Of a DNA stretch of 62,815 nucleotides, positions 131 through 59,339 are shown piece by piece. The stretch is from Candidatus Woesearchaeota archaeon (GTDB lineage: Archaea; Nanobdellota; Nanobdellia; Woesearchaeales; JAGVYU01), in the NCBI GenBank assembly GCA_043805595.1, contig JAZDHV010000027.1:1-62815 (forward strand). The letters are read 5' to 3'. Numbering within the stretch: position 1 is the stretch's first letter; the number at the start of each line of letters is the position of its first letter. The translations under genes and the position numbers were made by a program. The notes beneath the pieces were generated by a model that saw only the letters and a program-made list of their open reading frames with translations, was not told the DNA's origin and made no database searches.

Positions 131-634
131 ATGTTTATAAATAAGTTTAGATTCATGATTCGTATGGGGAATGGAGAGAATGAAGGAAATGGAGAAAAGC
201 CATCAGACTCAAGAGCTGAAGATCTTAAAACAACACTAGATTTAAAACAACCATTAGAATTTATTTTGGCAAATGCTAGAACACCAGGTCATGAAAAAGA
301 ATATTTGGACTATAAATTTATAAGAGATGACTTTCTCGAATATGTGGCAAGACAGACAGAAGGGGAAATCAGTCCAGCAGATGTTTTTATTGATCCTGAC
401 ATAAGAAGATGCGAAGCAAAGCTCCTATTGCCTGAAAAATTCCATATTCTTGCACAAGTTACAGGTGTCAAGAATATTTATAGAAATGGAACACTTCATT
501 ATTTTGTTGATGTTGGGTTAGGAACACCAAATGAGATGTGCTGGAAAGTCAGACTGGATACAAGTGATACAAGTGCGCTTTTTTCATTCCTATCAAGATA
601 TGGAGAACAATATCATATAAATAAAATAGAATGA
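131..634 (+). CDS. hypothetical protein (orphan); start uncertain, alternative ATGs at 155 and 164
   Basis: Uninterrupted 167-codon ORF in an AT-rich context. No motif recognised. Confidence 0.5.
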   Translation: MFINKFRFMIRMGNGENEGNGEKPSDSRAEDLKTTLDLKQPLEFILANARTPGHEKEYLDYKFIRDDFLEYVARQTEGEISPADVFIDPDIRRCEAKLLLPEKFHILAQVTGVKNIYRNGTLHYFVDVGLGTPNEMCWKVRLDTSDTSALFSFLSRYGEQYHINKIE

Positions 635-682: not shown

Positions 683-845
683 TATGTCAGAAATATACCA
701 CTGGTCTACATGATCAGTGGACAATAGTCCACAATCCATTTTTGGAAGGGGGTATATTTCTGAGCATGCTCAAAGTCGGCAGGGTGGGCGAAGCGAACAT
801 ACCACCAGTCAATTGACTAGTGGTCCCTGCCGACTTTGACAAAAA
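683..845 (+). repeat. Hairpin-rich repeat element, family 1, copy A
   Basis: About nine in ten positions match 44722-44883 by eye. Long-range stem CAGAAATATACC/GGTATATTTCTG. Hairpins CCACTG..CAGTGG and CCACCAGTC..GACTAGTGG, nested in GTCGGCAGGG/CCCTGCCGAC. The reading frames through the two copies are not conserved. Confidence 0.8.
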
Positions 846-847
846 AA

Positions 848-1060
848 TTACTTTTTCTTTGATTCTGCTTTTCCTTCTGTCTTGCATGTAGGACAATATC
901 CTTTACAAAACATGCATATTGCCATCAACAAGAACAATATTGTGTACCAGCTGATATTCCAGAAGTTCCAGACCTTCAAATCCTGCAGAAGGAACAACAC
1001 ACCCAATACCAATACTAACAGAGCGCATAGCTTACCGCATTTGCTGCACATATGACCCAT
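848..1060 (-). CDS. small Cys-rich membrane protein (hypothetical)
   Basis: 70-aa ORF with two hydrophobic helices and CxxC-like pairs (CSKCGKLC, CPTC). No assigned family. Confidence 0.45.
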   Translation of the reverse strand: MGHMCSKCGKLCALLVLVLGVLFLLQDLKVWNFWNISWYTILFLLMAICMFCKGYCPTCKTEGKAESKKK

Positions 1061-3010: not shown

Positions 3011-3126
3011 TATTGAAGATTACTGAAAATTTTTTAAATAAATTATTGTTTAAATTATAATTTACAATTAATTCATTTCTAAAAAGCAAAAAAAATTATA
3101 TCTATCGTGATTATTACGTTAAAACT

Positions 3127-3160
3127 CGAAAAAACATTTTTTTGGCGGTAAACTATATAT
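3127..3160 (+). promoter_or_regulatory. conserved upstream module (A6-CA-T7 + GGTAAAC + TATA), copy 1 of 3
   Basis: CGAAAAAACATTTTTTTGGCGGTAAACTATATATA. Near-identical modules at 7495-7530 and 44911-44947. Lies about 90 nt upstream of the ATG at 3249. Confidence 0.4.
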
Positions 3161-7408: not shown

Positions 7409-7494
7409 TTTTAATCTGGCATCTGGAGAAAAATATTGGTTTATAAACTTTTTTGTTATTATTACGGAAGATTGCGAATAACTAGAAAACCACA

Positions 7495-7530
7495 CGAAAA
7501 AACATTTTTTTGTAGTAAACATATTTAAAT
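7495..7530 (+). promoter_or_regulatory. conserved upstream module, copy 2 of 3
   Basis: CGAAAAAACATTTTTTTGTAGTAAACATATTTAAAT, about 60 nt upstream of the PFK-family gene. Confidence 0.4.
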
Positions 7531-11942: not shown

Positions 11943-12150
11943 CTAAAGAACCACCAGTCATAGACTGGTGGGATTCATCAATTCAACATCCACTACATCT
12001 ACGGACTGGTGGTTCTTAGTGCTCAGAAATTTTAATAAAATTTCTGGCATGCCAAAAATGCTCTGCATTTTTGAGCATTTTTCTGATTCCAATATTGGGA
12101 ATGGCTTTCGGCCACCAGTTAAAAACTGGTGGAAAATTTCTGACATTTTA
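11943..12150 (-). repeat. Hairpin-rich repeat element, family 2, copy C
   Basis: Shares both ends with copies D and E: GAACCACCAGTCATAGACTGGTGGGATTCA... and ...ACTGGTGGAAAATTTCTGACATTTTA. The central part differs. Confidence 0.8.
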
Positions 12151-14759: not shown

Positions 14760-14848
14760 TTGAAGAAAAGACATAAGAAATATAAGATAGAAAATTAGAA
14801 AGAAAACCTCAGTTCCAATAAAAAATCCACACCACATTAGGCTGCAGA

Positions 14849-14962
14849 GCATGAATCCAATTTAAGCAATCAAAGAAGCGATTAAAGCATGAAGCCATTT
14901 TGAGCAATCAAAGAAGAGATCAAAGAATAAATCCAATTTAAGCAATCAATGAACTGATCAAA
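14849..14962. repeat. 3 x 38-nt tandem repeat
   Basis: Units GCATGAATCCAATTTAAGCAATCAAAGAAGCGATTAAA, GCATGAAGCCATTTTGAGCAATCAAAGAAGAGATCAAA and GAATAAATCCAATTTAAGCAATCAATGAACTGATCAAA. The last unit overlaps the stop of the DUF1003 gene. Confidence 0.85.
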
Positions 14963-15530
14963 GATTCTTAAGAATAATATTCAGATTTGAATCATTATGC
15001 CTTGCCTTCTTGATCCTATCCTTATGCACATGATGAATCTCATAAATCATCCTTTTCAATAATTTCACTTCCTGCTGCATCTGCTGGATCTCCCTCTCAG
15101 CTTTCCTGTTCACCTGATAATCATAGCTTGCATTTATCCTGTCCCTTTCTGCAGCCCTATTCTGGCTCATCAAGATTACAGGAGCCTGCATGCCTGCCAA
15201 GACAGAAAGAATAAGGTTCAGCAGTATGAATGGATAGATATCCCACCTATAACTGACCATCAAGATATTTAAGATTATCCAGACAATCATAAAAAGGATC
15301 ATAAAAATAATGAAAACCCAGCTGCCTGCCCATTTAGCAATAAAATCTGCAGCCTTTTGACCAAGAGTTAGTTTTTGGCCTAAAGTAGGATGATTAGAAT
15401 GTTTGTGAATAATGCTTTTATTAACATAGTTATGATTATTTTTTATTGTCTTATGGTTTGTACCTCTTTTCTGAATATTAATATTTTCAATTCTATTCCT
15501 TATTGAAGGTTTAGCACTTTTCCTTACCAT
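14958..15530 (-). CDS. DUF1003-family membrane protein
   Basis: Two TM helices, then SQNRAAERDRINASYDYQVNRKAEREI, the characteristic DUF1003 core. Confidence 0.8.
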   Translation of the reverse strand: MVRKSAKPSIRNRIENINIQKRGTNHKTIKNNHNYVNKSIIHKHSNHPTLGQKLTLGQKAADFIAKWAGSWVFIIFMILFMIVWIILNILMVSYRWDIYPFILLNLILSVLAGMQAPVILMSQNRAAERDRINASYDYQVNRKAEREIQQMQQEVKLLKRMIYEIHHVHKDRIKKARHNDSNLNIILKNL

Positions 15531-20435: not shown

Positions 20436-20656
20436 CTAAAGAACCACCAGTCATAGACTGGTGGGATTCAATAAATCCGCAACTTCCTTATGATAGGACT
20501 GGTGGGATTTACTAAATCCGCAATTACCTTATGATAAGACTGGTGGTTCTTAGTGCTCAGGAATTTTTCACTCCTATAAGCTAAATCAATCAAAGATTGT
20601 CACCAGTCAGAGATTGGTGGAAAATTCCTGACATTTTATACAATTCTGACATTTTA
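20436..20656 (-). repeat. Hairpin-rich repeat element, family 2, copy D (with an internal module duplication of about 41 nt)
   Basis: Collinear with copy E (reverse complement) apart from a duplicated module ACTGGTGGGATT.A.TAAATCCGCAA.T.CCTTATGATA.G. The tail TTCTGACATTTTA occurs twice. Confidence 0.8.
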
Positions 20657-44169: not shown

Positions 44170-44652
44170 TTAATGCATAGCAATATTTTCAACCACTTTT
44201 GTCTTTGAAAATATATCGCTCAGCCTTTTATGGTCTTTCCTGAGTATCATCAGGATAGGGTCAATTATCTGAATCAGGTTAAATGGGATGATTGGAATCA
44301 AATAAATGTTTCTTAAGCTAACTTGCCATAATGTAAGCTTTTCTTTTTCTGACTCAATATATATGTTCATTATCAATTTCCCGATGCTCTGATTAATCAG
44401 ATATTCCAAAGCTGTGAAGTAGATGAAGAAAATGATAAATTCAACAATCTCAACAATGAAAAGCATATTGAAAAGTGATGGATTCTTGATTATGAACATA
44501 TATTGATCTATGACAGATCCAGTATCTGGAATCTGCACTACATTCTTGAGAACTGCTACAATCGGCCACATTATTATCAATAAAATTGACAAATCAAGGA
44601 TGTAAGCAATAATTCTTTTGAATACAGAAGCCTTTATTTTCATATACCTCAT
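44170..44652 (-). CDS. RDD-family membrane protein
   Basis: FKRIIAYILDLSILLII at the N-terminus and three TM helices. The upstream part of the ORF runs into repeat copy B and was trimmed. Confidence 0.6.
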   Translation of the reverse strand: MRYMKIKASVFKRIIAYILDLSILLIIMWPIVAVLKNVVQIPDTGSVIDQYMFIIKNPSLFNMLFIVEIVEFIIFFIYFTALEYLINQSIGKLIMNIYIESEKEKLTLWQVSLRNIYLIPIIPFNLIQIIDPILMILRKDHKRLSDIFSKTKVVENIAMH

Positions 44653-44721
44653 TTTTGGAAGATCCAGATTAAGCCTTGGCATAAGCCAATATTTGATATA
44701 GATAGTATATAAATTTAATTG

Positions 44722-44883
44722 ATATGTCAGAAATATACCACTGGACTGCATGATCAGTGGACAATATTCCACAATCCATTTTTGGAAGGTGGTATATTTC
44801 TGAGCATGCTCAAAGTCGGCAGGGTGAGCAGAGCGAACATGCCAACAGTCTATGACTGGTGGTCCCTGCCGACCTTGACAAAA
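44722..44883 (+). repeat. Hairpin-rich repeat element, family 1, copy B
   Basis: See copy A. Differences from copy A fall mostly in hairpin loops (GTCTACATGAT versus GACTGCATGAT). Confidence 0.8.
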
Positions 44884-44910
44884 CTAGATTCAGCTAAAAT
44901 TACGAAAAAT

Positions 44911-44947
44911 CTGAAAAAAACATTTTTTGGTAGGTAAGGTTTTTAAG
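44911..44947 (+). promoter_or_regulatory. conserved upstream module, copy 3 of 3
   Basis: TGAAAAAAACATTTTTTGGTAGGTAAGGTTTTTAAG, about 120 nt upstream of the aIF-1A gene. Confidence 0.35.
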
Positions 44948-45063: not shown

Positions 45064-45423
45064 ATGTATAAAAAGAAACCTCAAAAGAAAGGAGGAAGTT
45101 ACAATAGAAACAGTGATCAGGAAGAGCAGGTAGTCAGAGTCAGGATGCCAAGACCACCTGAAGTTTTTGGATTACTTGAGCAAAGATTAGGGGCATCTAG
45201 ATTAAGGGTTAAGTGCTTTGACAGCAAGACAAGGGTATGCAGGATACCGGGAAGGCTGAAAAGAAGGCTTTGGGTAAGAGAGGGTGACATAGTCATAATA
45301 GAACCATGGGAATTTGGAGGAGATGACAAAGGAGATGTCATCTATAAATATACCAAAAACCAGGTTCAATTCCTGAAAAATAAGGGTTATTTAAAGCAAA
45401 TAGAGGATTTTGAAGATCTTTAA
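45064..45423 (+). CDS. eif1a: translation initiation factor aIF-1A
   Basis: S1-like core [38 protein letters not shown]. Confidence 0.9.
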
Positions 45424-55834: not shown

Positions 55835-56014
55835 TAAAATGTCAGAATTATATAAAATGTCAGGAATTTTCCACCAATCTCTGACTGGTGACAATCTTTG
55901 ATTGATTTAGCTTTCAGGAGTGAAAAATTCCTGAGCACTAAGAACCACCAGTCCTATCATAATGTAATTGCGGATTTAATGAATCCCACCAGTCCATGAC
56001 TGGTGGTTCTTTAG
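55835..56014 (+). repeat. Hairpin-rich repeat element, family 2, copy E
   Basis: Reverse complement is collinear with copy D, minus one internal module. Confidence 0.8.
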
Positions 56015-57658: not shown

Positions 57659-58041
57659 AGCTAACCAAACAATTCCTATAGGATCTGCGATCAAGAATAC
57701 CCGTTGATCCTGCGGGAGATTGCTGCTATTTGAGTTCGACTAAGCCATGCAAGTCAGAGCGAAAGCTCGGCGAAATGCTCAGTAACACGTCGATAATCTG
57801 CCCTTAGGTCAGGGATAACCTCGGGAAACTGTGATTAAAACCTGATTGGGTAACATATCTGGAATGATTGTTACTTTAAAAGTAATGCCTAAGGATGAGT
57901 CGGCGGCGGATTAGGTCGTTGGTGAGGTAAAGTATACCAAACATTAGTTTGGTTTTTACATGCTCACCAAGCCAAAGATCCGTAGGGGCCTTGAGAGAGG
58001 GAGCCTCGAGAAGGGCACTGAGACACTGGCCCTAGCCCTAA

Positions 58042-58072
<31 letters not shown>

Positions 58073-58353
58073 CAGGAAACTGTGATAAGGGAACTCTAAG
58101 TGCTTGTACATTGTACAGGCTTTTGCCAAATGTAAATAATTTGGCGAATAAGTGGTGGGTAAGACGGGTGCCAGCCGCCGCGGTAACACCTGCGCCACAA
58201 GTGGCAATCACAATTATTGGGCCTAAAGCGTCCGTAGCTGGTTTAGTAAATTTCTTGTGAAAATGTTAAGCTTAACTTAACAAGTTGCAGGAAACACTGC
58301 TAAACTCGGAACCGGTAGGGGTCAGAAGTATGTGAGGGGTAACGGTAAAATAT

Positions 58354-58400
58354 TCTCACTACGTTCGAAAATGTTAAGAACGGAGTGGTCTTTACATTGT
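58354..58400 (+). other. putative insertion or intron of about 47 nt in 16S
   Basis: Interrupts the conserved GGTAAAAT...ATAATCC..GAC.ACC.GTGGCGAAGGCG region. Boundaries are ambiguous by a few nt. Confidence 0.45.
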
Positions 58401-58496
58401 TATAATCCCTCATAGACTACCTGTGGCGAAGGCGTCTGACTAGGACGGATTCGACAGTGAGGGACGAAAGCCAGGGGAGCGAACCGGATTAGATAC

Positions 58497-58599
58497 GGGA
58501 GATTTTGAGATTTCTGGAATTAACTCGGAAAGATTCGTTATACTACTAAGTACGAGTTGATGAAATTAATCTAAACAATCATTATCTTCTCGCTAATGA
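58497..58599 (+). other. putative 103-nt intron in 16S
   Basis: Splits the universally conserved GGATTAGATAC|CCGAGTAGTCC block. Confidence 0.65.
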
Positions 58600-58702
58600 C
58601 CCGAGTAGTCCTGGCTGTAAACGCTGCGAGCAAGGTGTTGCATATTCTTCGTGAATGTGCAGTATCGAAGAGAAGTCGTTAAGCTCGCCGCCTGGGAAGT
58701 AT

Positions 58703-58754
<52 letters not shown>

Positions 58755-59173
58755 CGGCGTGCGGTTTAATCTAATTCAACGCAGAGAATCTCACCAGAGG
58801 CGACGGCAGGATGAAGGTCAGATTGAATGTTTTACCTAACGAGCCGAGAGGTAGTGCATGGCCGCCGTCAGCTCGTGCCGTAAGGTGTCCAGTTAAGTCT
58901 GGTAACGAGCGAGACCTGTATCTATAATTGCTAACGACTCATTTGAGGATTGAGTACATTATAGGGACTGCCTTGGAAACAAGGAGGAAGGCGCAGGCAA
59001 CGGTAGGTCTGTATGCTCCGAATCTTCTGGGCAACACGCGCGCAACAATGGTAAGGACACTGGGATGCTACTCTGAAAAGAGAAGCCAAACTCGAAACCT
59101 TATCCAAGTCCAGATCGAGGACTGTAACTCGTCCTCGTGACGATGGAATCCCTAGTAATCGTGTTTCAACATA

Positions 59174-59221
<48 letters not shown>

Positions 59222-59296
59222 ACCGAGCAGGGTTTAGATGAGTATCAGCCTATTAGCTGGTCCGAATCTAAGCTCAGTGAGGTGGGTTAAGTCGTC

Positions 59297-59339
<43 letters not shown>

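Follow-up and report, generated by a model that had tools for sequence, protein, structure and literature searches.

Two repeat families in a Woesearchaeota genome as probable transposase-less mobile elements of the IS200/IS605 type

Two families of structured repeats in the genome of a Woesearchaeota archaeon, F1 and F2 (families 1 and 2), very likely represent two lineages within a single superfamily of mobile elements that encode no protein, end in hairpins and belong to the IS200/IS605 "peel-and-paste" kind, known as palindrome-associated transposable elements (PATEs). PATEs were defined in haloarchaea (PMC3119063, Table 4), with HqIRS46 and HqIRS56 of Haloquadratum walsbyi among the examples. 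The genome studied here (G000) is a 1.64-Mb archaeal draft of 66 contigs with a G+C content of 35.7% and a completeness of 92%; the window, the whole stretch of 62,815 nucleotides that was analysed, is its contig C27. The repeats make up about 1.5-2% of this 1.6-Mb DPANN genome and, because many copies lie at contig ends, they break its assembly. An annotator could take them for RNA genes, operators or island borders.

Two families of elements in the window

The F1 family is represented in the window by two copies on the forward strand. Copy A (684-841, 158 nt) is non-coding and lies between the convergent ORFs 131-634 (+) and 848-1060 (-). Copy B (44724-44880, 157 nt) follows a TTGAT at 44719-44723 in a divergent promoter region, with ORFs 44170-44772 (-) and 45064-45423 (+) at its flanks. 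A preliminary description of the window had judged the two copies by eye to be about nine-tenths identical, and they are indeed 92% identical over 163 aligned bases; both are present where it had placed them, with their ends shifted by one to two bases. Directly 5' of copy A, in the flank and outside the element, is the target pentanucleotide TTAAT (679-683, +; consensus TTNAT). The elements are 157-204 nt long, too short to encode a protein, and only spurious ORFs overlap them.

As single-stranded DNA, copy A folds into two adjacent self-closing domains. The left-end domain (684-771, +), delineated with RNAalifold, pair counts, the DNA fold and the correspondence of guides and targets given below, is closed by the helix P1, in which 684-699 pair with 755-771 around one bulged A; in F1 this is a 16-bp helix of ATGTCAGAAATATACC with GGTATATTTCTG[A]GCAT. 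The hairpins enclosed by P1 are CCACTGG/CCAGTGG, GGAC/GTCC and TCCA/TGGA, the left hairpin of copy A reading CCACTGG..TCAGTGG, with two small hairpins beside it. The bases TATA at 694-697, just 5' of this left hairpin, are the putative guide of copy A. The right-end domain (770-841, +) consists of a helix TCAAAGTCGGCAGGG/CCCTGCCGACTTTGA around the right hairpin CCACCAGTC..GACTAGTGG and runs to the element end ...TTTGACA; as a motif, the right hairpin enclosed by this same helix (domain 2) has the arms CCACCAGTC/GACTGGTGG. All stem and hairpin motifs listed in the preliminary description were found in the F1 copies. The inner hairpin is among them, and it is imperfect in both copies, with GACTAGTGG in copy A and CCAACAGTC in copy B.

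The minimum free energy of copy A is -44 kcal/mol, compared with -16.2 +/- 2.8 in shuffled sequences (z = -9.8). The complementary strand folds equally well, and the counts of G-T and A-C pairs (71 vs 52) are not decisive as to which strand folds. In F1-type elements a central strand, GGTATATTTCTGAGCATGCTCAAAAACC, with the palindrome GAGCATGCTC, pairs with the opening 16 bases of the element as well as with its last ~9. The two ends are thereby brought together at a single junction, and a circle released from the chromosome would take the form of a dumbbell with nearly all bases paired, a shape that might benefit excision.

The three F2 copies of the window have an F1-like layout written in mostly different letters. 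The copy at 55857-56014 (+), inserted after ATAAA, has the frame ATGTCAGGAATTTTCC...GGAAAAATTCCTGAGCAC followed by CTAAGAACCACCAGTC...GACTGGTGGTTCTTTAG, and sits within an older truncated left end (55839-55856). In the copy at 20436-20634 (-), a 41-nt unit of the right-end domain is repeated in tandem (20456-20537; GACTGGTGGGATTCAATAAATCCGCAACTTCCTTATGATAG on the + strand), where other F2 copies have single units; each unit ends in a hairpin arm, and slippage or a tiny nested insert is a possible origin. In a variant at 11943-12146 (-), inserted after TTAAA, the left-end domain contains additional small hairpin modules. The proposal that the two families have an ATGTCAG...CTGAGCA frame in common is borne out: in both, this closing helix precedes a second helix that encloses a CCACC...GGTGG hairpin.

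Shorter forms also occur. About 16 terminal-only copies of ~45 nt each are present in G000 (for example C52:14609-14650, C14:42877-42918, C23:39326-39367 and C50:23402-23443), which consist of a left end, one hairpin and a right end in the form ATGTCAGAATTTTCC-ATCCAGTC..GACTGGTGG-TTCTTTAG. Like the 52-bp versions of HqIRS46 in Haloquadratum, they are probably the products of deletions between the left and right hairpins, which resemble each other.

The window contains other repeated and inserted sequences. A short repeat with GAAAAAACATTTTTT(T)GG is found in three copies (3113-3151, 7481-7519 and 44899-44937), the last of them just 3' of F1 copy B, in a stretch missing from a congener (G001). 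A repeat with a 38-nt period is present in three tandem copies at 14845-14963 (CAGAGCATGAATCCAATTTAAGCAATCAAAGAAGCGATTAAAG-like). The 16S rRNA gene at 57697-59337 measures 1641 nt against the 1478 positions of the archaeal model; its inserts of ~30 and 48 nt may be expansion segments or small introns.

Copies, insertion sites and guides

Mapping of copy number and insertion contexts over the genome, which had been proposed as a check, shows the repeats to be high-copy, intergenic and inserted at specific targets. Using blastn and nhmmer, we detected about 55 copies of F1 and at least 90 copies and fragments of F2 in G000, the latter in several structural variants. As many as 125 of 127 left-end-anchored elements are intergenic, though ~85% of the genome is ORF. 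Their orientation is unrelated to that of neighbouring genes and clusters within contigs, with a value of 68 for the summed |n+ - n-|, compared with 46.8 expected (P = 8e-4). Likewise in relatives, 5/5 copies on G213:C8 and 6/7 on G078:C41 are on the same strand. The GC skew in the G000 draft tracks gene orientation. The clustering of orientation per contig agrees with strand-specific insertion.

The repeats extend well beyond this genome. The 5' module was recovered with blastn in 10 of 41 relatives at 71-96% identity, joined to different 3' modules. A covariance model (R1) of this module, the ~90 nt at the 5' side of F1/F2-type elements, matches 49 of 151 sampled genomes of the order (48 of 143 genera), usually in multiple copies, and all matching genomes in a phylum-level sample are labelled as belonging to the same order. 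Near-identical elements in public databases come from records labelled Candidatus Woesearchaeota MAG and from one labelled Aenigmatarchaeota.

Both boundaries of the elements are sharp. Upstream of ATGTCAG, the consensus over 46 full F1 copies is TTNAT, with the first T present in 45/46 and the second in 44/46; the third position is A in 19 copies, G in 13, T in 10 and C in 4. The 3' boundary of the same copies is ...TTTGACA, with random flank beyond it. F2 elements have the flank (t)TAAA followed by ATGTCAG...TTCTTTAG (87-88 copies), and their 3' end GGTGGTTCTTTAG is essentially invariant (88 copies). In flank logos of 46 F1 and 87-88 F2 copies the 5' flank is not repeated on the 3' side, and no target duplication is seen. 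Terminal inverted repeats are absent from F2 (ATGTCAG.../...TTCTTTAG); F1 has a 5-nt match TGTCA/TGACA that is part of a pseudo-symmetry. Without a duplication or a long inverted repeat, the elements do not fit a classical MITE, which has a target duplication and terminal inverted repeats that match a DDE transposon.

Comparison with the congener G001 recovers the sites before insertion. Two of the five window elements are missing from their orthologous places in this genome, and the junctions fall exactly at the boundaries read from the flanks. At the locus of F1 copy B, G001:C35 reads ...AATTGAT|GAGT... and diverges exactly where ATGTCAG starts; TTGAT is therefore flank, and the element starts at ATGTCAG. 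At the F2 locus 11943-12146, G001:C65 has a clean empty site, TTAAA|AAATTTATG, with no extra bases and no duplication. The empty sites thus confirm left junctions at which a specific sequence of 4-5 nt is retained, with insertion 3' of it, as in IS200/IS605 elements.

Elements are also nested within one another. One F2 interrupts the tnpA gene of an IS200-like element which we call type A (G000:C13:1-900, locus L062), as is evident from comparison with the intact copy at G000:C42:42901-43281. The same insertion is present in G001 (C66, locus L086) and is therefore older than the split of the two genomes. This tnpA also holds two hairpin mini-inserts of ~55 nt, GCTCAAAAATGC...GCATTTTTGGCAT...ATGACAT. 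Sharp boundaries, empty sites and nesting point to mobility, with insertion on the 3' side of a short specific sequence.

The transposase of IS608 recognises its cleavage and target sites indirectly, through base pairing of the site with four bases located 5' of the left hairpin foot; the left site lies 19 nt upstream of its hairpin and the right site 10 nt downstream (PMC3201880, PMC5934647). The elements described here have a related geometry. Their left hairpin begins 14 nt past the 5' boundary, and 8-9 nt (19 nt in F1 of this genus) separate the right hairpin from the 3' boundary, which is ...TTGACA or ...CTTTAG. We found five types of guide 5' of the left hairpin foot, with matching targets: TATA with TNAT, TTTT with TAAA or AAAA, CTTT with NGAA (4/4), AATT with TTAA, and AATA with TTAT. 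Of 73 scored copies, about 70 have a last guide base that is complementary to the last target base or forms a G-T or A-C wobble with it. C, T and A at guide position 1 go with G, A and T at target position -3, in agreement with the IS608 structure. This covariation of guide and target comes from about four or five independent lineages only. In F1 the third target position (-3) is unconstrained, though the guide predicts A. A corresponding rule for the right end was rejected on inconsistent offsets, CATG predicting TGAC, one base short of the observed end, and AGAA predicting CTTT, two bases short.

These observations suggest a mode of movement in which we infer both the enzyme and a single-stranded DNA intermediate. 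On single-stranded DNA, a Y1 (HUH) transposase acting in trans would bind both hairpins, and the guide would pair with the pentanucleotide flanking the left end. The element would be excised as a circle and re-inserted elsewhere, 3' of the same pentanucleotide and without duplication. The long closing helices would serve to bring both ends to one junction, and would be kept by selection on transposition-competent copies, not on every resident copy. Several sister lineages differ in both guide and target, and the two covary as IS608 predicts; the family thus exemplifies guide-programmed DNA insertion in nature.

Transposase genes and the acting enzyme

We detected seven Y1_Tnp matches in G000, which belong to three types. 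[quoted passage not shown] None of these tnpA loci has F-type ends or hairpins. The only matches were the F2 within tnpA described above (G000:C13, G001:C66) and a ribosome-binding-site hairpin upstream of type A tnpA. The type A elements of the order (L061, L065, L084, L127-L130, L149) have a common left end that starts with ATGACATACTCCCAAAATAAATCCAGCTAAAGCTGG, and a hairpin CCACCT..AGGTGG spans the ribosome-binding site just before the tnpA start. Translation of IS200 is controlled by a hairpin covering the ribosome-binding site in this manner.

The distribution of Y1_Tnp genes follows that of the 5' module no more closely than by chance: among 151 genomes, 49 have the module, 56 have Y1_Tnp and 20 have both, compared with 18 expected. 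Y1_Tnp is absent from the module-rich genomes G149 and G074 (100% complete) and G078, G052 and G011 (91-96%), which hold 14-25 or more scored copies; for G074, G149, G078 and G052 together the completeness is given as 95-100%. Exact 16-mer matches to viral contigs number 54, about the level of chance, and R1 gave none of them a score. A search for IS91-type Y2 enzymes gave no match in G000, but as the control genomes gave none either, it is uninformative.

Some room is left for a reading in which the elements are mobile but are moved, in place of an IS200-type Y1 transposase, by an unrecognised enzyme or one borne on a virus or plasmid missing from these assemblies; it would use the two-domain fold, which joins both ends and the centre at one junction. 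No cognate tnpA with matching ends was found in the sampled loci, there is no association with Y1_Tnp (G149 and G074 hold 14-16 or more copies without it), and the architecture departs from IS608 in placing the guide and cleavage sites inside long helices. Nevertheless, the guide/target rule and the geometry, with the guide at the hairpin foot and a longer 5' spacer, are those of IS200/IS605. Multicopy IS genes are often missing from draft metagenome assemblies; the single IS110 gene of the genome is unrelated to the elements, and there is no true copy among the viral-contig matches. In Haloquadratum, moreover, PATEs move though nearly all tnpA genes are broken (PMC3119063). We therefore regard this reading as unlikely, and since drafts lose multicopy genes and Haloquadratum presents the same paradox, we do not count the missing cognate transposase as a refutation of an IS200/IS605 origin.

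In its furthest form the other-enzyme reading describes an order-wide protein-less superfamily whose two-domain fold puts both cleavage sites and the guide at one junction, and which proliferates without a cognate IS200-type transposase, through an unrecognised enzyme or a promiscuous host or viral HUH protein. We give this only a small chance; if true, such a superfamily would be a new way to run guide-directed single-strand transposition. For the preferred reading, as transposase-less IS200/IS605-type elements, the missing transposase echoes the situation in Haloquadratum, where PATEs move despite broken tnpA, and the two-domain fold offers a concrete substrate with which to find the acting enzyme.

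Two guide-RNA systems associated with transposase genes were considered and set aside. No match to PF07282 or PF01385 (TnpB) is present in G000, at 92% completeness, which argues against an omega RNA or reRNA of the TnpB kind. The region upstream of the single IS110-type gene (G000:C66:720-1151) is unlike F1/F2, so that an IS110 bridge RNA was likewise rejected. At this locus (L257, G000:C66:80-1200), the only gene of the IS110 family codes for a DEDD transposase of 356 aa.

The conserved fold and related systems

The 5' module retains its fold over large sequence distances. Pairing is seen in 92% of cells of an alignment in which about 30 genomes are represented by 76 copies, compared with 78% in column shuffles and 36-41% with slid partners. 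Both sides have changed in 22 of the 27 base pairs, a number reached by none of 500 shuffles, and slid partners give 7-13 of 27. The number of cells changed on both sides is 295, compared with 101 in column shuffles and 14-72 with slid partners. The alignment was fitted to the model and therefore leans towards the structure, but the margin is still large; RNAalifold on an independent MAFFT alignment finds 14 of 27 pairs compensated. The right-end helix, too, keeps pairing with changed letters, as TCAAAAACC.../...GGTTTTTGA in most genera and TCAAGAACC/GGTTCTTGA in others, and has a 10-bp paired extension in this genus.

The preliminary description had argued that structure is under selection across diverged subfamilies, and that this would fail if a structural alignment revealed no covarying pairs and the shared frame proved coincidental. 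The 22 of 27 compensated pairs (0/500 shuffles) uphold the argument: covariation is present, and the frame is not a coincidence.

Within the genome the picture is one of decay. Copies A and B differ at 13 positions, with no compensatory change. The earlier suggestion that these differences cluster in loops holds weakly for this pair of copies (7 in 39 unpaired and 6 in 120 paired positions; Fisher P = 0.017) and fails across 43 genomic F1 copies, in which the minor-allele frequency is 0.067 at paired and 0.072 at unpaired positions (P = 0.48). In the same 43 copies, 254 pair cells are broken against 16 that are compensated; the 74 G-T mismatches do not outnumber the 88 of the A-C type. Since paired and unpaired positions vary equally, resident copies decay neutrally. 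The structure is kept only along lineages that kept multiplying. Neutral decay fits selection for transposition and speaks against each copy being a working RNA gene.

Two roles had been proposed for the fold, transposase recognition and RNA function. Target-specific insertion without duplication, the empty sites, the covariation of guide and target and the neutral decay favour the former, and the fold shared by the two families is most likely conserved for the element's own copying and not for a cellular RNA role. If the copies acted as genes or cis-elements of a structured RNA that serves the host (for example a regulatory sRNA, a terminator or stabiliser, or an omega-type guide RNA), this would account for the strong fold with its covariation and for the intergenic locations. 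A TATA-like box can be seen by eye upstream of both F1 copies in the window, and functional RNAs of IS200 and TnpB elements are known (PMC4615843, PMC8612924). However, Rfam searches of the elements at gathering and permissive thresholds returned only rRNA and chance matches, with no HEARO among them, and no TnpB match accompanies them. Orientation is unrelated to the flanking genes, paired positions vary like unpaired ones with broken pair cells far outnumbering compensated ones, and presence or absence differs between congeners, some copies being nested and the distribution patchy. We consider an RNA function of this kind highly improbable.

Domesticated repeats of the REP/BIME type, served by a single-copy RAYT-type (TnpA-REP) enzyme and playing a genome-structuring role, would explain the high copy number, the intergenic locations and the resemblance of the F1 pseudo-two-fold symmetry (TGTCA.../...TGACA ends, central palindrome GAGCATGCTC) to an inverted unit pair, but are extremely unlikely, as the units measure ~160 nt instead of 20-40 nt, F2 is without the symmetry, no Y1_Tnp gene is flanked by F1/F2 hairpins in the loci examined, and the elements show oriented insertion at specific targets under a guide rule, in the manner of IS200/IS605.

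As to the known systems, REP/BIME repeats with their RAYT (TnpA-REP) enzymes (PMC3333891, PMC8266576) resemble F1/F2 in being high-copy intergenic palindromes related to IS200/IS605 hairpins that occur in inverted pairs. They differ from F1/F2, which are ~160 nt long and unlinked to Y1 genes, in measuring 20-40 nt and in flanking a single-copy Y1 gene of their own.

The resemblance to IS608 of Helicobacter pylori (TTAC) and ISDra2 of Deinococcus radiodurans (TTGAT) is closer. All insert 3' of a tetra- or pentanucleotide (TTNAT in F1), carry subterminal hairpins and a four-base guide at the left hairpin foot, make no duplication and are oriented with a strand bias, which in F1 and F2 takes the form of clustering per contig. 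Unlike these two, F1 and F2 have neither tnpA nor tnpB inside. Compared with IS608, the left spacer is 14 nt instead of 19 nt, the guide is buried in a 16-bp helix, and pairing with the central strand places the right cleavage site in a helix too; in F1 of this genus the right hairpin lies 19 nt and not ~9 nt from the end, and in F1 the third target position is free. The buried guide and cleavage site, the 19-nt spacing, the free third position and the lack of a strand-specific signal in the G-T and A-C counts weigh against an IS200/IS605 origin.

The PATEs of Haloquadratum are the nearest counterpart. Both groups are too short for a protein, make no target duplication and have similar palindromes near both ends, which in the elements studied here are CCACTGG../CCACCAATC.. 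on the left and CCACCAGTC..GACTGGTGG on the right. A 5' targeting sequence of 4-5 nt, a spacer that is longer at the 5' than at the 3' end, terminal-only versions of ~45-52 bp derived by deletion between the palindromes, and frequent nesting are further points in common, as is mobility in spite of a scarcity of intact tnpA. Unlike in Haloquadratum, the host is a Woesearchaeota-type DPANN archaeon, and no IS605-type parent with related palindromes was found in the sampled tnpA loci. Each end of F1 and F2 is in a long closing helix, the whole element forming two stacked domains, and the 5' module is conserved over 48 of 143 sampled genera of one order. What the two families add is a Woesearchaeota lineage of transposase-less IS200/IS605-type elements, within an element class that is already known.
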